Positions 8,687 to 62,467 of a stretch of 64,000 nt of DNA are shown one piece after another; position 1 is the stretch's first letter; each line of letters starts with the position of its first letter. Below the pieces are notes generated by a model. The model made no database searches. It saw only the letters and a list, made by a program, of their open reading frames with translations, and was not told where the DNA came from. Origin of the DNA: Carcharhinus amblyrhynchos (taxonomy: Eukaryota); NCBI GenBank assembly GCA_965287045.1, contig OZ336874.1:61008001-61072000 (forward strand), written 5' to 3'. The translations under genes and the position numbers were made by a program.

Positions 8687-8838
8687 CATAAGAACATAAG
8701 AACATAAGAAATAGGAGCAGGAGTAGGCCATCTAGCCCTTCGAGCCTGCCCCGCCATTCAATAAGATCATGGCTGATCTGTCATGGCTCAGTTCCACATT
8801 CCCGCCCTCTCCCCATAACCTTTAATCCCCTCTCTTGT
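8687..8838 (-). mobile_element. Young 5'-truncated CR1 (family B, (TTCTTATG)n tail)
   Basis: Near-identical to the 3' ends at 38300-38450 and 55725-55870. Confidence 0.95.
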
Positions 8839-13695: not shown

Positions 13696-14177
13696 TTTAA
13701 TTATCCAATAAAAGTTTGTTTCCTGAAGGAATAGTAATTTTCCATTCCCTTTATTCCTAAATTATACAGGAAAAGAATAGGGACTTGTTTAATTTGGGCA
13801 TGACATCAAGTCAAGATTTATGTTGCAAACTTTTAAAAGTAAATTACAACGGCTGTAAATGTCAATAATAATCATAGTGCAACATTTGCAACCTTGGAGC
13901 ACCGAAATATAGGCCCTTTCATTAAAAGATAAAATTATTTTGTTTTTTTCACTGAACCCTTATCCATACAAATTAGCATGTAGATTTACTTTGAAGAGCA
14001 AATGCTTTATTAATGCACAAGCAATGCTTAAAGGAGGGAGGACTTGTCAAGTCCTAAACAGTGTCACAGAACAATAATATTGTTTGATGCAGTGGAATCT
14101 CAGTTTTAAACTAACTGGGCCAAGGAATGTTCTGATAATTGATTGATTACTCTAAAACAAGTACAGATCAATAAATA

Positions 14178-15785: not shown

Positions 15786-16518
15786 TTAAAACACTTGCAG
15801 ACATATTTTTGCTATTCTTGGTTTTATTTCCATGACACTGACATTTGTTACAAACCTCCTTGACTAGATTCAAGGCTCCAAATTGCAACCTAGAATGTTC
15901 TTTGGCATCAATACTATTTATCCTTTAACAACCCTAAGATGGGTAGAAAATCTCATTTAAAAAATAAGGAATTTCAAATTTGACTAATCATATTTAAACG
16001 CGTGAAAGTTTGTTCCTTTGGCCAGTGAGTGTCTTTTTTGAATGTCTTGTTTCTGTGTGCAAAACACTTCAATCTTTTGTCCCCATGGCATATTTGACAA
16101 AATAATGGATTTGTATCATGACTGGCATGAAAGTGCAGAACAGGTTAAGCAATTAATAACTTGCAACCAGCCACAAATGCAAGCTTTCTGCCAAAACCCA
16201 TCAGCAATGCATCCATTGTGGAAAAATATAACAAGAAAAACTGTCAAATTTTTACTGCATTGGAATATTCAGATTTGTAGCAGACTAACTTTATAGGTAG
16301 TCTTCCACGTGGAACATGCTACTTATCACTTTGTAAACGTGTTTCCTGAACTAGCTCCAGTTCCTACTAGAACATGTTGTTAAATTCACACTGTTTTAAG
16401 TCACCAGTTCTCAGTGTCTGGAGTTGAACACCTGGCCCACTTGAGGCAACCAATAATTAAATAATCTCTTGAAAGCTTTGGCTGGGGTAATTCAAAAAAC
16501 AGAACCAGGGCATCATGA

Positions 16519-17192
16519 GGGGAAACCTCAGGTGATGGAGAGCACGCCGGTGGATGTCCCCCTTCAAAATAAGTACTCCTGCCTGAGTACTACTGGGGGG
16601 GGACAGCTCATCTGAGGGAGGCAGCAGCGACCAGGTCTCTGGAGCTGAGCCAGTATGTCAAAAAATTTAAAAAGAGAGCAGAAAGGTAGTACTAATAGGG
16701 GACTCCACAGTGAGGGGGGCGGACAGGCGTTTTTGTGGACGTAGACGTGAGTCGCGGATGGTGGTTTGTCTCCCTGGAGCTGGGATCCGGGATGTCTCTG
16801 GGCGTGTCCCAGACATACTGAAAGGGGAGGGTGAGGAACCGGAGGTTGTAGTGCATATAGGTACTGCTGACGTAGGCAAGAAGAGGGAGGCAGTCGTGAA
16901 AAGGGACTATAGGGAACTGGGTAGGCAGCTGAGGAAGAGGAAAGCGAAGGTAGTAATCTCAGGATTGCTGCCTGTGCCACGAGAGAATGAGGGCAGGAAT
17001 GGAATGAGGTGGAGGCTGAATGCGTGGCTGAGGGACTGGAGCAGGGGGCAGGGATTTTGGTTCCTAGATCATTGGGACCTCTTTAGGGGCAGGTGTGACC
17101 TGTACAGTAAAGATGGGTGGCACTTGAATCCCAGGGGGACTAATATCTTGGTGGGAAGACTGGCTAGGGCTACTGGGGGGACTTTAAACTAG
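16519..17192 (+). pseudogene. CR1 ORF1 (SGNH/GDSL esterase domain), 5'-truncated and disrupted
   Basis: Reads VLIGDSTVRG, CLPGA, VHIGTAD, SGLLP, DGWHLN. An in-frame TAA lies upstream of GDS, and the zinc-finger N-terminus is absent. Confidence 0.85.
17183..17192 (+). promoter_or_regulatory. Candidate -1 frameshift slippery site T_TTA_AAC_TAG
   Basis: X_XXY_YYZ heptamer in the ORF1 frame. Its -1 frame joins the reconstructed ORF2. Confidence 0.6.
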
Positions 17193-17228
17193 AAAGGATG
17201 GGGGGAGGGAATTGTAATGGGGAGACTG

Positions 17229-17329
17229 AGCCATGACAGATCAGCCATGATCTTATTGAATGGCGGGGCAGGCTCGAAGGGCTGGATGGCCTACTCCTGC
17301 TCCTATTTCTTATGTTCTTATGTTCTTAT
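17229..17329 (+). mobile_element. Family-B CR1 3' tail nested in the family-A element, TSD GACTG
   Basis: Matches 38349-38450. GACTG occurs at 17224-17228 and 17330-17334. Confidence 0.9.
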
Positions 17330-20300
17330 GACTGGGACCGAGGAGGTTAGCTCCCAGGTAGGGAAGGACTGCAGGCAGTATGAGAGGGAGGCTAGACAGG
17401 GGGTGAAGAAGGGAAATGCCCAGACTGAGGGGCTGAAGTGTATCTATTTTAACGCCAGGAGTGTAGTAAATAAGGTAGATGAGCTTAGGGCATGGATTGC
17501 TGCTTGGGAATGTGATGTGGTGGCCATTACGGAGACTTGGATGTCTCAGGGACAGGACTGGGTACTTCAGGTGCCAGGATTCAGATGCTTCAGGAAGGAC
17601 AGGGAGGGAGGCAAAAGAGGTGGTGGAGTGGCACTGTTGATCAGGGACAGTGTCATGGCTGCAGAGAAGGAGGATGCCGTGGAGGGACTATCTACAGAGT
17701 CTCTGTGGGTGGAAGTTAGGAACAGCAAAGGGTCGGAAACTTTGCTGGGCGTATTCTATAGGCCGCCCAATAGTGACAGGGAAGTTGAGGTGCAGCTAGG
17801 GAAACAGATTCTAGAGAGATGTAGTAATAACAGAGTTGTCGTGATGGGGGACTTCAATTTCCCAAACATCGATTGGAATATCCCAAGGGTAAGGGGTTTG
17901 GATGGGGAGGAGTTTGTTAGGTGTGTTCAGGAAGGTTTCCTGACACAGTACGTGGATAAGCCTACGAGAGGAGAGGCTGTACTTGACCTGGTACTGGCGA
18001 ATGAACCAGGACAGGTGACGGATCTCTCGGTAGGAGACCATCTTGGGAATGGTGATCATAATTCTATCTCCTTCACAATTGCATTGGAACGAGATAGGAT
18101 CAGGCAGGCTAGGAAGGTGTTTGTCTGGAGTAAGGAGAAATATGAAGACGTCAGGAAGTTAATTGGACAAATAAACTGGAAGGAGGCATTCTTGGGGAAA
18201 AGTACCGAAGGAAGGTGGCGGATATTCAAGGAATGTTTGTCTGGAGCTCTGCACGACAACATTCCGATGAGACAAGGAGGTTTTGGTAGGTCGCGGGAAC
18301 CGTGGTGCACCAAGGCTGTGGTGAACCTAGTCAGGAGGAAAAGGAAGGTGTACAAAAGGTTCAGGGAGCTAGGAGATGTTAAGGATCTTGAGGAGTATAA
18401 GGATTGTAGAAAGGAGCTTAAAAGGGAAATTAGGAGAGCCAGAAGGGGTCATGAGAAGGCCTTGGCGGGTAAGATTAAGGAGAATCCCAAGGCCTTCTAT
18501 AAATATGTGAAAAGTAAAAGGATGAGAAGAGAAGGGATAGGACCTATAAAAGGTGAAGGGGGAAAGGTCTGTGTGGAACCAGAAGAAATGGCAGAGGTGC
18601 TTAATGAGTACTTTGCCTCAGTATTCACGGTGGAAACTGATCTGGGAGATTTTGCTACAGGTTTGCAGCAAATGGAAAAGATTGAGTATGTGGATATTAA
18701 GGAAGAGGATGTGTTAGAACTTTTGAATTCTATCAAGATAGATAAGTCGCCAGGACCAGATGGGATGTACCCCAGGTTACTGTGGGAGGTGAGGGAGGTG
18801 ATTGCAGAGCCCCTGGCGATGATCTTTGCGTCGTCAATGGAGACGGGAGAGGTTCTGGAGGATTGGAGGATTGCGGATGTGGTTCCTATTTTCAAGAAAG
18901 GGAACAGAGATAGCCCGGGAAATTACCGACCGGTAAGTCTGACCTCAGTGGTTGGTAAGCTGATGGAGAGGCTTCTGAGGGACAAGATTTATGAGCATTT
19001 GGAGAGGTTTGGCATGATCAGAAATAGTCAACATGGTTTTGTCAAGGGCAGGTCGTGCCTTACGAGCCTAGTTGAGTTCTTTGAAAATGTGACTGAACAC
19101 GGTGACGAAGGAAGAGCAGTGGACGTGGTTTACATGGACTTCAGCAAGGCGTTTGATAAGGTCCCCCATGCAAGACTTCTAGAGAAGGTGAGAGGGCATG
19201 GGATCCAAGGGGCTTTGGCCTTGTGGATCTAGAACTGGCTTGCCTGCAGAAGGCAGAGAGTGGTTGTGGATGGGTCTTTTTCTGCATGGAGGTCAGTCAC
19301 CAGTGGAGTGCCCCAGGGATCTGTTCTAGGACCCTTGCTGTTTGTCATTTTCATAAATGACCTAGATGAGGAAGTGGTGGGATGGGTTAGTAAGTTCGCC
19401 GATGACACGAAGGTCGGTGGTGTTGTGGATGGTCTGGAAGGATGTCAGAAGTTGCAGCAGGACATAAATAGGATGCAGGACTGGACGGAGAAGTGGCAGA
19501 TAGACTTCAACGCGGATAAATGTGTAGTGGTCCATTTTGGCAGGACCAATGGGATGAACGAGTACACTATCAAGGGCAGGAGTCTTAGCAGTGTTGAAGA
19601 GCAGAAGGATCTTGGGGTTCGGGTCCACAGGACTCTTAAATCGGCCTCGCAGGTGGAGGATGTGGTCAAGAAGGCGTATGGTGTACTGGCCTTCATTAAT
19701 CGAGGGATTGAGTTTAGGAATCGGGAGGTAATGCTGCAACTTTATAAGACCTTTGTCAGGCCTCACTTGGAGTACTGTGCGCAGTTCTGGTCGCCTCACT
19801 ATAGGAAGGACGTAGAAGCTATTGAAAGGGTACAGAGGAGATTTACAAGGATGTTGCCTGGATTGGGAGGTATGCCTTATGAAGATAGGTTGAGGGAGCT
19901 GGGACTCTTCTCCCTGGAGAGACGAAGGTTGAGAGGCGACCTGATAGAGGTTTATAAAATGTTGAGAGGAATAGATAGGGTGGATTCTCAGAGGCTATTT
20001 CCCCGTGTTGAAATGGTCGCTACGAGAGGACACAGATTTAAGGTGCGGGGAGGAAAATACAGAAGTGATGTTAGGGGTAAGTTTTTCACTCAGAGGGTGG
20101 TGAGTGAATGGAATCGGCTGCCGTCAGTGGTGGTGGAGGCGAACTCGCTGGGGTCTTTTAAAAGACTTCTGGATGAGTATATGGGATTTAATGGGATTGG
20201 GGGTTATAGATAGGTCTATGGATTGGTAGGTATTGATGTGATCGGCGCAACTTGTGGGCCGAAGGGCCTGTTTGTGCTGTAGTGTTCTATGTTCTATGTT

Positions 20301-20814
20301 CTATGATGTTGATTAATCTTTCCATGGTTTTGGTATATCCAGGACTTCAATGTTCTCTCGCAAGAGCCTCTACCAAATTGATTGCTTTCAGGCTGCTGTA
20401 ATGTGCATTGGGCTTTAGAATTGGGAGAGAAACACAAATCAGGGCTACCAGAGATTGTCCTAAGCAGAATGTCAAGTTGTGGATTTTAATTAACTTTCTT
20501 TTCAATAAGCTGTCATCAAGTTTTCTCTAGAACTCTTCTTGTTAGAGTTTTAAATGCATCATGTTTTTTTCATGTGTTTTGATCTCAATTGAAGTGTAAA
20601 ACGCCAAATCTATTCTTTATAATTTATTGTTGTAGTTTGACAATTCCGTCCAAAGATGTAACTAATCTCACTGAGATGTCCACCCCTCTTCTGTTCCCCA
20701 ACCATGCGTCCCAATACTCTCACTGCCAGCCTGGCCCCGACAAGACATTAGACTCACCTCCAACACTGGCTCCAACACTGAACCCCTTTCAGCCCTTAAT
20801 CTTTAACCATGTGG

Positions 20815-37914: not shown

Positions 37915-38450
37915 CTGCGCAAGGATATTTTGGCCCTGGAGGGAGTGCAGAGGAGGTTTACTAGGCTGATACCGGAGTTGAGGGGATTGAGCTATGAGGA
38001 GAGGCTGAATAAACTAGGCTTGTACTCGTTAGAGTTTAGAAGAATGAGGGGAGATCTCATTGAGACGTATAAGATGATGAATGGGATGGATAGGGTAGAG
38101 GTGGAGAGACTCTTCCCGCTCAAAAAAGACAGTAGGACTAGGGGGCACAGCCTCAAGATAAAGGGGGGGCGGTTTAGAACGGAGTTGAGGAGGAACTTCT
38201 TCACTCAAAGGGTGGTGAATCTCTGGAATTCTCTGCCCGTTGAAGTGGTGGAGGCTGCCTCGCTAAATATTTTTAAGAAGCGGGTTGATGGGTTCTTGAT
38301 AAGAGAGGGGATTAAGGGTTATGGGGAGAGGGCGGGAAAGTGGAACTGAGCCACAACAGATCAGCCATGATCTTATTGAATGGCGGGGCAGGCTCGAAGG
38401 GCTAGATGGCCTACTCCTGCTCCTATTTCTTATGTTCTTATGTTCTTATG
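37915..38450 (+). mobile_element. Young 5'-truncated family-B CR1
   Basis: Open frame LRKDILALEGVQRRFTRLIP...GYGERAGKWN* followed by an (TTCTTATG)3 tail. Confidence 0.95.
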
Positions 38451-54700: not shown

Positions 54701-55724
54701 ACCTAGCCAGACCTACAGTGACAGCTTCATCCATCATGGCTGACAGCCAAGTGGACTGAAAAAAGAGAAAGCTGAAGCTTTCCAAAAATAATTTTAAAAA
54801 TTGTGATTTAGCACAATGCTTCACAATGTCATTAATTTTTTGTTGTGAAAATGTTAGGATCTGGTGAATTTTTTCAATTCAATTGTTTTGCCATATTCAG
54901 TTTGTTGGCCAAAAAAAGACACAAAATTAATTAATTTATTGTATTATAAATATGGTTTACTTCAAAAATATCTAACATGGACCATGCAACAAATCTTCCA
55001 AATAAAAAACACGCACCATCTTTATCTAATGGCTGGTGCAACTTTATTGTGGATAAGCTGGATTGCACTACTCATCTCAAGGGAACTGTATACATTCATA
55101 TGATAATTGTTAAGAGAAAATTATTATCATGTGGTACTTGAACCAGGGGATCTTATTTTGATATTCTGCAGTTGATATATGTAATGTTCCATATTTTCAT
55201 GTCTTCTGGGTCTTCCTATCCCACTGACCAAAATGTTTGGCATAAATTTGAAAACTTATCTATCTCTCTGCTTTAAACATTTTCTTAACTAGACATTTTT
55301 CAATGTGAAAAGGAGGGTTTCATCTTTTGAAAAAAGTAAATTATGTTGTGGCATGGCAGTTTGAATAGGGCAAATGGAGAGAAATGGAGGGAAACAAAGA
55401 TAATGAACTGGATTTTTCTATAGAATCAGGATTCCCAACATTGTGTTCCAATTGCTTCTCTGCTGGCTGCTTCCTATGTGACTAGTGCAGCATTACAACA
55501 GGAGAGGGGGCTGGCAGTTTGTCTCCTGCATATGCTGGAAGGCATTAAATTGGTGCGATTTTGGCATCACACAGCCAGGATTCAAGATTTGGACCATGAT
55601 GATCCTGTGTATGTATTCATTCAACACCCTTCAAAGACCTGGCAAAGAGGCTGCAAGGTGAACCTTTCACTCGCATTCCTTAAAAGTCGAGGCACCCAAC
55701 TTGCAGGTAAGGTAATTTTTGTCA

Positions 55725-56400
55725 ACATAACAACATAAGAAATAGGAGCAGGAGTAGGCCATCTGGCCCTTCGAGCCTGCCCCGCCATTCAATAAGATCA
55801 TGGCTGATCTGTCGTGGCTCAGTTCCACTTTCCGGCCCTCTCCCCATAACCCTTAATCCCCTCTCTTATCAAAAACCCATCAACCCGCTTCTTGAAAATA
55901 TTTAGCGAGGCAGCCTCCACCACTTCAACGGGTAGAGAATTCCAGAGATTCACCACCCTTTGAGTGAAGAAGTTCCTCCTCAACTCCGTTCTAAAATGCC
56001 CCCCCTTTATCTTGAGGCTGTGCCCCCTAGTCCTACTGTCTTTTTTCAGTGGGAAGAGTCTCTCCACCTCTATCCTATCCATCCCATTCATCATCATCTT
56101 ATACGTCTCAATGAGATCTCCCCTCATTCTTCTAAACTCCAACGAGTACAAGCCTAGTTTATTCAGCCTCTCCTCATAGTTCAACCCCCTCAACTCCGGT
56201 ATCAGCCTAGTAAACCTCCTCTGCACTCCCTCCAAGGCCAAAATATCTTTGCGCAGGTGCGGCGCCCAAAACTGCACACAGTACTCCAGCTGCGGCCTCA
56301 CCAATGCCCTATACAGCTGCAGCAAGACCTCCCTACTTTTATATTCAATCCCCCTCGCTATGAAGGCCAGCATCCCATTCGCCTTCCTGACCACCTGCTG
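55725..56400 (-). mobile_element. Young 5'-truncated family-B CR1
   Basis: Open frame QQVVRKANGMLAFIARG...GYGERAGKWN*. Near-identical to 37915-38450. Confidence 0.95.
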
Positions 56401-58697: not shown

Positions 58698-61586
58698 TTA
58701 ATAGCCCCTACCATATCCCTCCATTCTCGTTTCACTCATGTGCCTATCTAACTGCATCTTAAACGAGTCCAACGTGCCTGCCTCCACCACCCTACTCGGT
58801 AGCGCATTCCAGACCCCCACAACTCTCTGTGTAAAGAACCTTCCTCTTACCTCCAAATTATACCTCCCCCCCCTCACCCTTAAGTGATGACCTCTCGTGT
58901 TCGTACCCAGTCTAGGGAGCAGTCTCTCACTATTAACTCTATCTATTCCCTTCAGTATCTTATATACCTCTATCATGTCCCCTCTCAATCTCCTTCTTTC
59001 CAAGGAGAATAGCCCCAGTCTCTTCAGTCTCTCCTCGTAACCCAGTCCCCCCATGCCAGGCAACATCCTGGTAAACCTCCTCTGCACCCTTTCCAGAGAC
59101 TCCACGTCCTTCCGGTAATAAGGTGACCAGAACTGGACGCAGTACTCCAAATGCGGTCTGACCAACGTTCTGTATAACTGAAGCATTAGACGGCAGCTTT
59201 TATACTCTAAGCCCCTTCCTATAAAGGCTAACATCCCATAAGCCTTCCTAACAACGTTCTCCACTTGTGACACAACCTTCATGGATTTGTGGACCTGCAC
59301 TCCCAGGTCTCTCTGTACGTCTATACTCCTAATCGGCCTACCTTTTATCACATAGCTCCCCTCTGCATTATTCCTTCCAAAATGCATCACCTCGCATTTG
59401 TCAGGATTAAACGCCATCTGCCACCTATCTGCCCACTGCACCAACCTGTCTATATCCTGTTGTATCACCTGACAATCCAGTTCTGTACCCGCCAACCCTG
59501 CCATCTTGGTGTCATCAGCAAACTTGCTGATCACACCACCTACTCCCTCTTCTAAGTCATTTATGTAGACTACAAAGAGGAGAGGTCCCAGTACCGAGCC
59601 CTGCGGCACACCACTGGTCACTGGCCTCCAGCCCGACAAGGTACCCTCCACAACTACCCTCTGTCTCCTATTTCCCAACCAGTTCTCAATCCACCTAGCT
59701 ACCTGGCCTCGTATCCCATGCGCCTTAACCTTTTCTACCAGCCTACCGTGAGGGACTTTGTCAAACGCCTTACTGAAATCCATATAGATGACATCAACGG
59801 CTCTCCCATCGTCAACCGTTTTTGTCACCTCCTCAAAGAATTCCACCAGATTCGTAAGGCAAGACCTCCCTCTAACAAAGCCATGTTGCGTATCCCTAAT
59901 CAGATCGCAACGTTCCAAATGCTCATACATCCTACCCCTAAGTATTTTTTCCATTAACTTCCCTACCACCGACGTCAAACTCACCGGCCTATAATTCCCA
60001 GGGTTATCCCTACTACCTTTTTTGAACAACGGGACCACATTTGCTACCCTCCAGTCTTCTGGGACCTCACCTGTGTCCAAAGAAGAGACAAAGATGTGCG
60101 CCAGAGGCCCAGCAATTTCATCTTTCGCCTCCCTAAGCAGCCTGGGATAAATACCATCAGGCCCCGGAGCTTTATCCGTCCTTACGCTACCTAAAAGCCC
60201 TAGCACTTCCTCTCTCGTAATAACTATATCCTGCAACTGCACCTCCGCTCCCTCCAAGAGACCGCACGATTCCGAACCCCTCTCCTTTGTGAATACCGAC
60301 GCAAAGTATTCATTCAGGAGCTCCCCCATTCCCTCCGACTCAATACACAACTCTCCACTCTTGTCCCTAAGAGGACCAATTTTCCCTCTAACTACTCTCT
60401 TGCCTCTAATATAGGAATAAAATGCCTTAGGATTATCCTTAATCCTACCGGCCAAAGCCATCTCATGCCCTCTCTTCGCCCTTCTAATTCCCCTTTTTAG
60501 CTCCCTCCTACTCTCTCTATATTCCTCCAGCGCACACTCCGTACCCATTTGTTTTGACCTAACATACGCCTCCCTCTTCCTCCTAACCAAGTCTTCAATA
60601 TCCCCTGTAATCCACGGCTCTCTAATCCTACCTTTCCCATCCTTTCGCTTAACCGGAACAAACCTCCCCTGCAACCATTTCATTTTGTCCCTAAAAGCCT
60701 CCCACTTGCCAACCGTGGACTTGCCAGCTAACATTCCCTCCCAGTCAGTTTGCTGCAGCTCCCTCCTAATCCTGCCATAGCTTGCCTTTCCCCAGTTCAG
60801 CACACTCCCGCTTGGACGGCACTCGTCCCTTTCCATTTTTATCCTAAAGTAGACGGACTTGTGGTCACTGTTTGCCACATGTTCGCCTACCTCTACCTCA
60901 CCCACCTGCCCTGGCTCGTTTCCCAACACTAAATCCAGTATAGCCCCTCCCCTAGTCGGGCAAGTTACATACTGTTCTAGCGACCCTTCCATAACACATT
61001 TCACAAACTCCTCTCCCTTCGTACCCCCAGCTCTAGGCCCCCTCCAATTCACTCCGGGAAAATTAAAATCACCCACTACAACCACTCTATTCTTTCTGCA
61101 CCTGTCCAAAATGCCCCTGCAAATTCCCTCCTCCACTGACTTTGGGCTGTTGGGTGGCCTATAGTACACCCCTAGCAGTGTGATCTCTCCCTTTTTATTC
61201 CTCAACTCCACCCACAACGACTCAATCCCTATCTCTTCCATATCGCCCTCCCTCTGCACTACTGTGATGTTTTCCTTGACTAACAGTGCCACCCCACCAC
61301 CTCTCTTCAACACTCCTCTGTCATACCTAAAACACCTGTACCCAGGAACATTCAGCTGCCAGTCCTGCCCTTCCCGTAACCACGTCTCCGTTACAGCCAC
61401 CACATCCAACTGCCTCACAAACATCAAGGCCCTAAGCTCATCCGTTTTCCCTGCCACACTCCTAGCATTGAAACAGACACAGTTCAACCCACAAACGTCC
61501 CTCGGAACCACCTTCTCCCTTATAATTTTCCTTTCACCTGTCTCTCTCCCAGCCACCTCCCCACCCCCCCTCCCTATTAGTTTAAA
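58698..61586 (-). CDS. CR1 ORF2: APE endonuclease + reverse transcriptase (start mechanism unresolved)
   Basis: Uninterrupted frame with FNARS, VTETW, GDFN, LDLVL, SDH, QHGFVRGRSC, DFSKAFD, GVPQGSVLGP, FADDTK. The frame opens at the slippery site, and the first ATG lies inside the APE domain. Confidence 0.93.
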   Translation of the reverse strand, partial: FKLIGRGGGEVAGRETGERKIIREKVVPRDVCGLNCVCFNARSVAGKTDELRALMFVRQLDVVAVTETWLREGQDWQLNVPGYRCFRYDRGVLKRGGGVALLVKENITVVQREGDMEEIGIESLWVELRNKKGEITLLGVYYRPPNSPKSVEEGICRGILDRCRKNRVVVVGDFNFPGVNWRGPRAGGTKGEEFVKCVMEGSLEQYVTCPTRGGAILDLVLGNEPGQVGEVEVGEHVANSDHKSVYFRIKMERDECRPSGSVLNWGKASYGRIRRELQQTDWEGMLAGKSTVGKWEAFRDKMKWLQGRFVPVKRKDGKGRIREPWITGDIEDLVRRKREAYVRSKQMGTECALEEYRESRRELKRGIRRAKRGHEMALAGRIKDNPKAFYSYIRGKRVVRGKIGPLRDKSGELCIESEGMGELLNEYFASVFTKERGSESCGLLEGAEVQLQDIVITREEVLGLLGSVRTDKAPGPDGIYPRLLREAKDEIAGPLAHIFVSSLDTGEVPEDWRVANVVPLFKKGSRDNPGNYRPVSLTSVVGKLMEKILRGRMYEHLERCDLIRDTQHGFVRGRSCLTNLVEFFEEVTKTVDDGRAVDVIYMDFSKAFDKVPHGRLVEKVKAHGIRGQVARWIENWLGNRRQRVVVEGTLSGWRPVTSGVPQGSVLGPLLFVVYINDLEEGVGGVISKFADDTKMAGLAGTELDCQVIQQDIDRLVQWADRWQMAFNPDKCEVMHFGRNNAEGSYVIKGRPIRSIDVQRDLGVQVHKSMKVVSQVENVVRKAYGMLAFIGRGLEYKSCRLMLQLYRTLVRPHLEYCVQFWSPYYRKDVESLERVQRRFTRMLPGMGGLGYEERLKRLGLFSLERRRLRGDMIEVYKILKGIDRVNSERLLPRLGTNTRGHHLRVRGGRYNLEVRGRFFTQRVVGVWNALPSRVVEAGTLDSFKMQLDRHMSETRMEGYGRGY
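61550..61586 (-). promoter_or_regulatory. Candidate -1 frameshift cassette: T_TTA_AAC_TAA + G-tract
   Basis: Heptamer at 61586-61580, a 5-nt spacer, then GGGAGGGGGGGTGGGGAGGTGG. Confidence 0.65.
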
Positions 61587-62467
61587 TCATTCCTGAACAC
61601 CCCAGCTAACCTCCCTGCTAAGACACTAGTCCCCCTCCCGTTCAAATCCTCCCCACCCCTCCTGTACAGTTGCCCTTCTCTCCTAAACACCTCCCAGTGA
61701 TCTACATAAATAAACCCCTCTCCCCTACACCAGTCCCTCAACCATGCATTCAACTGCATGATCTCGTCATTCTTAGCCCTGCTCGTACTGGGCAGCAACC
61801 CAGACAGTGCCACCCTAGAGGTCCTGCTCTTTAGTTTGGCCCCCAACTCCCTAAATTGCCTACGGACCTCTCCCCTACTCCTCCTTCCTATATCCCCCTC
61901 CCCTACGTGTACTATGACCTCTGCCTGGGTCCCCTCCCCTTTCAAAATTCCCTCTACCCTTTCCATTATATCCTTTACCCCTGCTCCAGGGAGGCAGACC
62001 ACCATCCTGGAGTCGCGCCCTTGCCCACAGAACCTCCTATCAATCCCTCGGACCCTCCCATCCCCTACCACTATCACCTTACCAGCCCCCTTCCGTCCCT
62101 CTAAATCAGTCTCCCCTTCCTTCCTATTTTTCTGTGCCCCTGCCGACGAACCTTGGGGGGCCTCCGGGGAGGCCGGGGGACCCTGACTACTCTTCTTCCT
62201 CTTTCCCCTCCTAACAGTCGTCCATCCTCCCTTCTCTTCAGCCCTTGAGACCTCCTCCTGCTCATGTTTCCCAGCCATTATCTCCTCATTCTCCCTAACT
62301 AGAAACGCATCTTCCAGTCGCCCCTCGAGTTGCCTGACCCGGGCCCTCAATCGCTGCAGTTCTAAACATTTACTGCAGATGTGTACCTTGGGGACCCGTG
62401 ACACCACCAGGAACTCCCACATGTGGCACCGGACGCAACTTACATTCCTCCCTATATTCCCTGCCAT
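61577..62467 (-). CDS. CR1 ORF1: zinc finger (CxxC...CxxC), leucine zipper, SGNH-fold domain, 296 aa
   Basis: ATG in GACATGG context. Reads CVRC...CSKC, LQRLRARVRQLEGRLE, VVGDG, CLPGA, SGLLP. Confidence 0.9.
   Translation of the reverse strand: MAGNIGRNVSCVRCHMWEFLVVSRVPKVHICSKCLELQRLRARVRQLEGRLEDAFLVRENEEIMAGKHEQEEVSRAEEKGGWTTVRRGKRKKSSQGPPASPEAPQGSSAGAQKNRKEGETDLEGRKGAGKVIVVGDGRVRGIDRRFCGQGRDSRMVVCLPGAGVKDIMERVEGILKGEGTQAEVIVHVGEGDIGRRSRGEVRRQFRELGAKLKSRTSRVALSGLLPSTSRAKNDEIMQLNAWLRDWCRGEGFIYVDHWEVFRREGQLYRRGGEDLNGRGTSVLAGRLAGVFRNDLN

Follow-up and report, generated by a model that had tools for sequence, protein, structure and literature searches.

How is the second open reading frame (ORF2) of a long interspersed nuclear element (LINE) translated when the first (ORF1) ends at a stop codon and ORF2 is open in another frame? 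Expression of ORF2 from bicistronic LINEs is an open question, and the studied animal cases, L1 and SART1, favour reinitiation. In most vertebrate genomes, esterase-bearing CR1 LINEs dominate among the repeats. One such element, a CR1-type LINE here called family C, lies at about 16514-20303 on the forward strand of the window, a 64,000-nucleotide stretch of Carcharhinus amblyrhynchos DNA (GCA_965287045.1, contig OZ336874.1, positions 61,008,001 to 61,072,000). The first-pass annotation of the window took the ORF1-ORF2 junction of this element for a -1 ribosomal frameshift site. We confirm that the feature is real, and our data support that interpretation. Judged from sequence, the junction is likely to be a programmed -1 ribosomal frameshift site that would yield an ORF1-ORF2 fusion in esterase-bearing CR1 LINEs. 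Frameshifting of this kind is the simplest account because the codons and the phase at the junction are fixed, the linker is open and variable in length, and an AUG is dispensable.

The junction in family C

The family C element and the insertion nested in it comprise the following features.

16514..17192, forward: ORF1 remnant, 5'-truncated (Pfam PF13472, E 3e-14; tblastn with P0006/P0004)
17165..17167, forward: TAG shutting the -1 frame upstream; with a common family variant at 17167 it is still a stop
17183..17189, forward: slippery heptamer T TTA AAC (X XXY YYZ), marked by codon fixation across families
17190..17192, forward: ORF1 stop TAG, directly 3' of the heptamer
17198..17200, forward: ATG in the ORF2 frame, strong context, 5 nt past the stop; family-specific, possible reinitiation site
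17200..17209, forward: G-tract (G6, A, G3) beginning 11 nt past the heptamer; candidate stimulator
17224..17228, forward: left copy of a 5-bp target-site duplication (joint with a 5-nt overlap)
17229..17329, forward: nested 101-nt tail of the 3' untranslated region (UTR) of another CR1 family, a 5'-truncated insertion (blastn; loose ends, 106-nt skips)
17330..17334, forward: right copy of the 5-bp duplication
17335..17429, forward: remainder of the ORF2 N-terminal linker
17430..20213, forward: ORF2, coding for an APE endonuclease and a reverse transcriptase; premature TAG at 19230-19232
20283..20303, forward: 3' tail, a 7-nt unit repeated three times

The copy is 5'-truncated and dead. Its ORF1 has a frame break between about 16600 and 16632, and the SGNH/GDSL esterase domain is open at 16671-17192 and matches the solved structure 4C1B (E 4e-33). 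ORF2 has Pfam matches to PF03372, PF14529 and PF00078. The element thus shows the features of the CR1 clade, namely an SGNH esterase in ORF1, an APE endonuclease and reverse transcriptase in ORF2, and a short tandem-repeat 3' end without poly(A). The closest named relatives of ORF1 are from rays, and the named relatives of ORF1 and ORF2 overall are from rays, birds, lizards and a turtle.

As annotated, ORF1 ends ACT TTA AAC TAG and a G-rich run follows. The -1 frame from 17183 reads FKLERMGGGNCNGET, with the translation FKLERMGGG. The sequence also bears out the claim that this frame is shut upstream by the TAG at 17165, so that entry into the ORF2 frame is limited to the last 8 codons of ORF1.

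The nested insertion adds 106 nt in total (101 nt plus one 5-nt duplicate), which is 1 mod 3. This copy therefore shows ORF2 in frame 0, and discounting the insertion puts it in -1, as the annotation had claimed. With the insert discounted, the -1 frame contains no stop from the heptamer to the endonuclease, and the other frames contain 2 and 5. Contigs with the same skip were found: among the insert-spanning joints listed for runs X1 and X9, the net skip was 106 nt in 6 of 9, 107 nt in two and 220 nt in one. All of these joints were of low depth, and one 107-nt skip holds unknown letters. The 101-nt tail occurs elsewhere in the window at 96-99% identity (8688-8788, 38349-38449 and 55724-55819; blastn), and at two of these three places it directly adjoins another CR1 family's ORF2 stop. 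Summed over contigs, the depth of the tail is about 100 times that of the family C flanks.

The 9-mer of the junction occurs 3 times in the window compared with 1.09 expected, and 8 of 100 shuffles reach 3, so the count alone is not significant; the significance of the signal lies in position and codon choice. The occurrence at 14105 is away from any ORF1 end and was taken as chance. Of the 40 best-supported rows of within-family variants listed, 19 fall in 17036-17174 and none in 17175-17228, and by their coordinates 15 of the 19 are at third codon positions of ORF1. As a sign of constraint, the lack of variants in the junction stretch is suggestive only. Family C was not found in raw-read runs X21 and X22.

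Codon use and phase across CR1 families

A second family in the window, family A, keeps the junction motif and the phase, as had been claimed. Its features are on the reverse strand.

61577..62467, reverse: intact ORF1, 296 aa, ending Asp-Leu-Asn-stop
61580..61586, reverse: heptamer T TTA AAC, followed by TAA
61564..61570, reverse: G7 run, 10-16 nt past the heptamer
58698..61586, reverse: ORF2, 962 codons open in the -1 frame from the heptamer

The last codons of family A ORF1 are GAT TTA AAC TAA, and no ATG lies ahead of the endonuclease in ORF2. Families A and C share 87/163 residues in ORF1 (53%) and 558/923 in ORF2 (60%) and are homologous. The support that the annotation called independent is therefore not independent in origin; what stands is the retention of the junction despite saturated synonymous sites. 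Only 56/181 and 11/31 fourfold sites are identical between the two families, which indicates this saturation. Outside the heptamer, none of 65 aligned leucines is TTA in both families, and 1 of 18 aligned asparagines is AAC in both. Both ORFs of the family A copy (58698-62467, reverse) are open, yet no tandem-repeat tail is present in the 250 nt past the ORF2 stop, and its 3' end is possibly interrupted. At 61640-61700 (reverse) its esterase has GEDL where most relatives read DGLHL; by sequence, the catalytic His appears to be lost in this copy or family.

Six families (A, C, G001/L002, L001, L003 and L016), 31-62% identical over the last 150 residues of ORF1, were compared. In all six, ORF1 ends with TTA AAC and a stop. 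The first-pass annotation expected TTA AAC to be fixed at synonymous positions, and each of the two codons is indeed the only one used. The preceding T, for which it expected the same, is present in five families and is replaced by G in L001 (G TTA AAC). Among 21 invariant ORF1 residues, the terminal Leu and Asn alone are encoded by a single codon, and the other 19 use 2-5 codons. ORF2 is in the -1 frame in all six families, also as expected. The distance from the stop to the endonuclease is 89, 89, 98, 104, 122 or 134 nt, always 2 mod 3, and the -1 linker is free of stops in all six representatives. Synonymous codons, or an ORF2 in frame 0 or +1, which the annotation had held to speak against frameshifting, were not found across these families. 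G is invariant in all six at +8, +11, +12, +14 and +16 past the heptamer, compared with 1 invariant offset among 293 in an upstream control (ungapped register), and, of the five invariant Gs, three fall on third codon positions when read in -1. The -1 linker contains no ATG in families A, G001/L002 and L016; that of L001 has one at +77, and in L003 an ATG lies within the first endonuclease strand.

Animal-type CR1 DNA was located in 5 JGI contigs and 3 bacterial metagenome-assembled genome (MAG) records. Junctions were anchored by the ORF1 profile and an in-frame Leu-Asn/Lys-stop, and copies without this required ending are thus uncounted. The 25 distinct junctions (18 in G001, 3 in JGI contigs, 2 in G002/G003 and 2 in the window) have T TTA AAC in 23 cases, G TTA AAC in one and T TTA AAG in one. 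ORF2 is in -1 in 17 of them, in frame 0 in 5 (including the window copy with the insert), in +1 in 2 and absent in 1. The 12 copies of G001 in -1 share one distance, 104 nt, and one of them has a stop in the linker. The five off-frame G001 copies have other distances, and the 4 inspected have private indels. The count leaves out L004 and L005, with broken ORF1 ends, and L034, L035, L043 and L044, which have a weak esterase match and no in-frame Leu-Asn/Lys-stop. L050 had no esterase or endonuclease domain on recheck and was dropped. Shark-type ORF1 patterns had no match in JGI metagenomes or IMG/VR, and broader ORF1 patterns had none in IMG/VR. The CR1 DNA in the MAGs G001, G002 and G003 comprises L006-L049; the 28 ORF1 matches in the 17.8 Mb of G001 point to host contamination of a species-representative genome. 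Across 401 genomes of its order, a vertebrate profile matched in G001 only.

At the protein level, 162 ORF1-like proteins were collected. In 109 of them no more than 25 residues follow the esterase match, and these provide 98 distinct tails. The query profile ended in LN, and retrieval was therefore biased towards the endings counted here: LN in 56 tails, QGN in 9 and Asn in 71. The final tripeptide is compatible with a slippery heptamer in 65/98 tails and in 443/9604 control tripeptides (4.6%). A residue without a T-ending codon precedes LN in 1/56 tails and stands one and two places earlier in 20/56 and 21/56; low counts recur further back (5/56 and 4/56). All 9 GN tails have Gln before GN, as G GGA AAC would permit. 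They are P0065, P0071-P0073, P0075, P0078, P0080, P0123 and P0134, and together with P0126, P0102 and P0132 they lie in one clade and have QGN, SKN, LEN and QEN tails. These tails suggest that the heptamer may have changed within the clade, with G GGA AAC, A AAA AAC and G GAA AAC as its forms. In a quick ORF1 tree from which the tails were left out, LN is present in both main groups, and a 5-member L2-like clade resembling the zebrafish ZfL2-1 esterase (4C1B) is without it. Named members of the protein set include a snake and a swallow. The models P0184 (from a ray) and P0058 run from ORF1 into FKL, which is the -1 reading, and P0184 continues into the endonuclease. P0184 is annotated as hydroxyacid oxidase 2 isoform X1 and contains a CR1 ORF1 esterase joined in frame with the endonuclease of ORF2; the gene name is apparently a mis-annotation.

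Published consensuses agree with this pattern. A term search of the supplement of PMC13343379, with 400-letter cells examined by eye, covered part of that source. In it, the heptamer followed by TAG gave 12 matches, 11 of them at the end of ORF1; the corresponding numbers were 8 and 6 with TAA and 3 and 1 with TGA. The 18 junction rows span bowfin, bullfrog, chimaera, sharks, rays, coelacanth, crocodilians and lizard, and one row is labelled Crack. A non-exhaustive set of 11 synonymous-variant terms gave 15 matches in the same part, none at a junction. A run of at least 4 G begins 7-11 nt past the heptamer in 12 of the 18 rows. The consensuses look gapped, and the phase was therefore left unread. 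The ORF1 stop overlaps an in-frame AUG in ScyCan_CR1-1a, SquAca_CR1-17a and SquAca_CR1-6c. The 5' UTR of the shark consensuses SquAca_CR1-3 and -18 also holds the 9-10-nt motif. In the part of the Suh 2014 supplement covered, matches are internal to ORF2 or in flanks, with none at a junction.

Mechanism, stimulator and alternatives

We infer from the sequence pattern both the slippage itself and the stop plus G-tract as the source of a pause. Most ribosomes would terminate at the stop codon that follows U UUA AAC and free ORF1p. A minority would move back by one base while tRNA-Leu and tRNA-Asn occupy the heptamer, and then read the linker. The product would be an esterase-endonuclease-reverse transcriptase fusion, of about 1,256 aa in family A, and slippage would set the ratio of ORF1p to ORF2p, as for Gag and Gag-Pol. 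The adjacent stop codon and the G-tract, either protein-bound or forming a quadruplex where there are enough G-runs, would cause the pause, and not a stem-loop or pseudoknot. Free ORF2p may be made by a second route in family C, from the AUG at 17198.

Two features of canonical -1 programmed ribosomal frameshifting (PRF) are present, a 0-frame heptamer of the form X XXY YYZ and a downstream ORF open in -1 in all six families. The third, a stem-loop or pseudoknot 5-9 nt downstream, was found neither by folding nor with Rfam. Fold z-scores for the 45 and 90 nt 3' of the heptamer compared with shuffles, from a method without pseudoknot modelling, were -1.2 to +1.6 in six representatives and reached -2.3/-2.5 in L003 only. 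No long-range pairing partner of the G-tract is common to the families. A universal quadruplex was ruled out, as G001/L002 has a single G-run. [quoted passage not shown] Since the G-tract is at the position of the PRRSV protein-binding motif, 11 nt 3' of the site, a protein bound to the G-tract, with the adjacent stop adding to the pause, would be our preferred stimulator. A more specific version, in which the fusion arises by a -1 shift that an unstructured G-tract stimulates from a fixed distance of 10 nt, the tract being recognized by a host G-run-binding protein or by ORF1p or acting as a G-quadruplex, is tentative, and we regard it as possible rather than probable.

Several observations weigh against frameshifting. 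No conserved RNA structure was found in the folded sequence 3' of the heptamer, Rfam had no match at the junction, and only families A and C have a predicted quadruplex. An AUG in strong context lies 5 nt past the stop in family C, and L001 has an AUG at +77. In the three shark rows where an AUG overlaps the stop, the -1 phase would be forced anyway. According to the parts of PMC5009743 and PMC1965478 covered, initiation of mammalian L1 ORF2 is independent of its AUG, so a missing AUG is no proof of a frameshift. The final tripeptide is incompatible with the heptamer in 33/98 tails, and the QGN covariation is known from protein only. Two insert-spanning joints skip 107 nt rather than 106. Finally, one G is lost from the G6 run at 17200 at about 10% of X1 depth (20 contigs) and in none of X9. 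This deletion fits neither frameshifting nor reinitiation unless compensated; homopolymer or sequencing error, decay, or a dead or non-autonomous sub-lineage are possible explanations.

The alternative that survives best, although it is unlikely, is termination-reinitiation, in which ribosomes stop at the end of ORF1 and restart ORF2 at a nearby AUG or non-AUG codon, and no fusion is made. The first-pass annotation had noted the ATG at 17198 as a caveat, and rightly: its context is strong (A at -3, G at +4), the ORF2 model of a ray relative, P0180, likewise begins MGGGG, and family C alone leaves reinitiation possible. The AUGs overlapping the stop in the three shark rows also suit this mechanism, which, in the portions of PMC2881922, PMC5972666 and PMC3708506 covered, is tested for SART1 and proposed for L1. 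Reinitiation nevertheless leaves unexplained that fixed codons are confined to the terminal Leu and Asn. Families A, G001/L002 and L016 lack an in-frame AUG to restart at, and L001 and L003 have none close to the ORF1 stop. In several rows of the part of PMC13343379 examined by eye, the AUG by the G-tract is in the ORF1 frame and not in the ORF2 frame. In 4 of 7 representatives the 110 nt upstream lack the UGGGA core of a termination upstream ribosome-binding site (TURBS), which in the other 3 lies at scattered positions, and no conserved SART1-like structure is present downstream. Reinitiation may still operate in some CR1 families, alone or beside frameshifting.

It is very unlikely that the junction instead serves RNA processing or transcription, whether as a weak polyadenylation hexamer that has a G-rich element downstream of it, as an internal promoter or as a splice acceptor, and so gives ORF1-only or ORF2-only RNA. 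The constraint does act on nucleotides, and G-tracts are known RNA-processing elements. However, an ORF2-only RNA would still be without an AUG in three families, and the linker stays in phase with the heptamer over the lengths of six families. A splice acceptor was rejected, as the stop can be TAG, TAA or TGA and does not preserve an AG acceptor. Slippage of the polymerase on the G-run was also rejected, since the stop lies upstream of the run and the frames would stay unjoined. A requirement of the esterase for a C-terminal Leu-Asn, with heptamer and phase as by-products, is scarcely credible and largely refuted by codon fixation: LN does end 56/98 tails, and the scarcity of K, E, Q, M and W before LN recurs further back and could be structural, but protein selection cannot single out TTA from the six codons for Leu or prefer AAC to AAT, five L2-like esterases resembling ZfL2-1 (4C1B) end without LN, and neither the phase nor the G-tract is predicted.

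If frameshifting with the G-tract as stimulator does operate here, CR1 would be a natural case of a G-tract-stimulated frameshift in a cellular mobile element, and the junction a point at which the host or the element could switch retrotransposition. If the frameshift is conserved, the main LINE of cartilaginous fish, reptiles and birds would use a Gag-Pol strategy like that of retroviruses. The predicted ORF2 protein would then be an esterase-linked fusion and not start at its first Met, which matters for annotation and for CR1 assays.

Comparison with known systems

No report of a frameshift at the CR1 junction was found in a literature search outside of which lay the original 1997-2003 CR1 papers and Repbase. 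The main text of PMC13343379 had no matches for frameshift, slippery, overlap or translation. The word frameshift is absent from the main texts of PMC3905857, PMC4120745 and PMC3708506 and is used in other contexts only in PMC4255032 and PMC11835228. The part of the 2016 review of frameshifting covered here (PMC5009743) does not mention CR1. In that part, U_UUA_AAC and G_GGA_AAC rank with the most shifty heptamers on mammalian ribosomes, G_UUA is the variant of equine arteritis virus, and G-quadruplex stimulators are anticipated but without a natural example. The CR1 G-tract, with no conserved structure found beside it, points to a stimulator of that kind.

The canonical esterase-ORF1 CR1 described in the part of PMC13343379 covered has the same esterase ORF1, APE endonuclease-reverse transcriptase ORF2 and short tandem-repeat tail as the element studied here. 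SART1 and L1 resemble CR1 in having a bicistronic LINE RNA, and in some CR1 families an AUG is at or near the stop. No fusion is made in SART1 or L1, however, and SART1 requires a downstream structure (PMC5972666, in part). Unlike both, CR1 retains the slippery heptamer while the AUG comes and goes.

Frameshifting by -1 is not new to LINEs, since ORF2 of the Dictyostelium non-LTR (long terminal repeat) retrotransposons TRE5-A and TRE3-A requires it, according to a figure legend of PMC5911963. These belong to another LINE lineage and host, and the function of their ORF1 is unknown. In coronavirus 1a/1b and retroviral gag-pro-pol, as in CR1, U_UUA_AAC ends the upstream ORF and the polymerase ORF is in -1; the fusion that they make is predicted for CR1 (PMC5009743, in part). 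CR1 differs from them in being a LINE and in that no pseudoknot or stem-loop was found 3' of its site. In the PRRSV nsp2 frameshift, described in the same part of that review, nsp1beta and poly(C)-binding protein act on CCCANCUCC, 11 nt 3' of the site, with no RNA structure. The CR1 G-tract likewise begins mostly at +10 or +11. It differs in being G-rich and not C-rich, and a stop adjoins the CR1 site.
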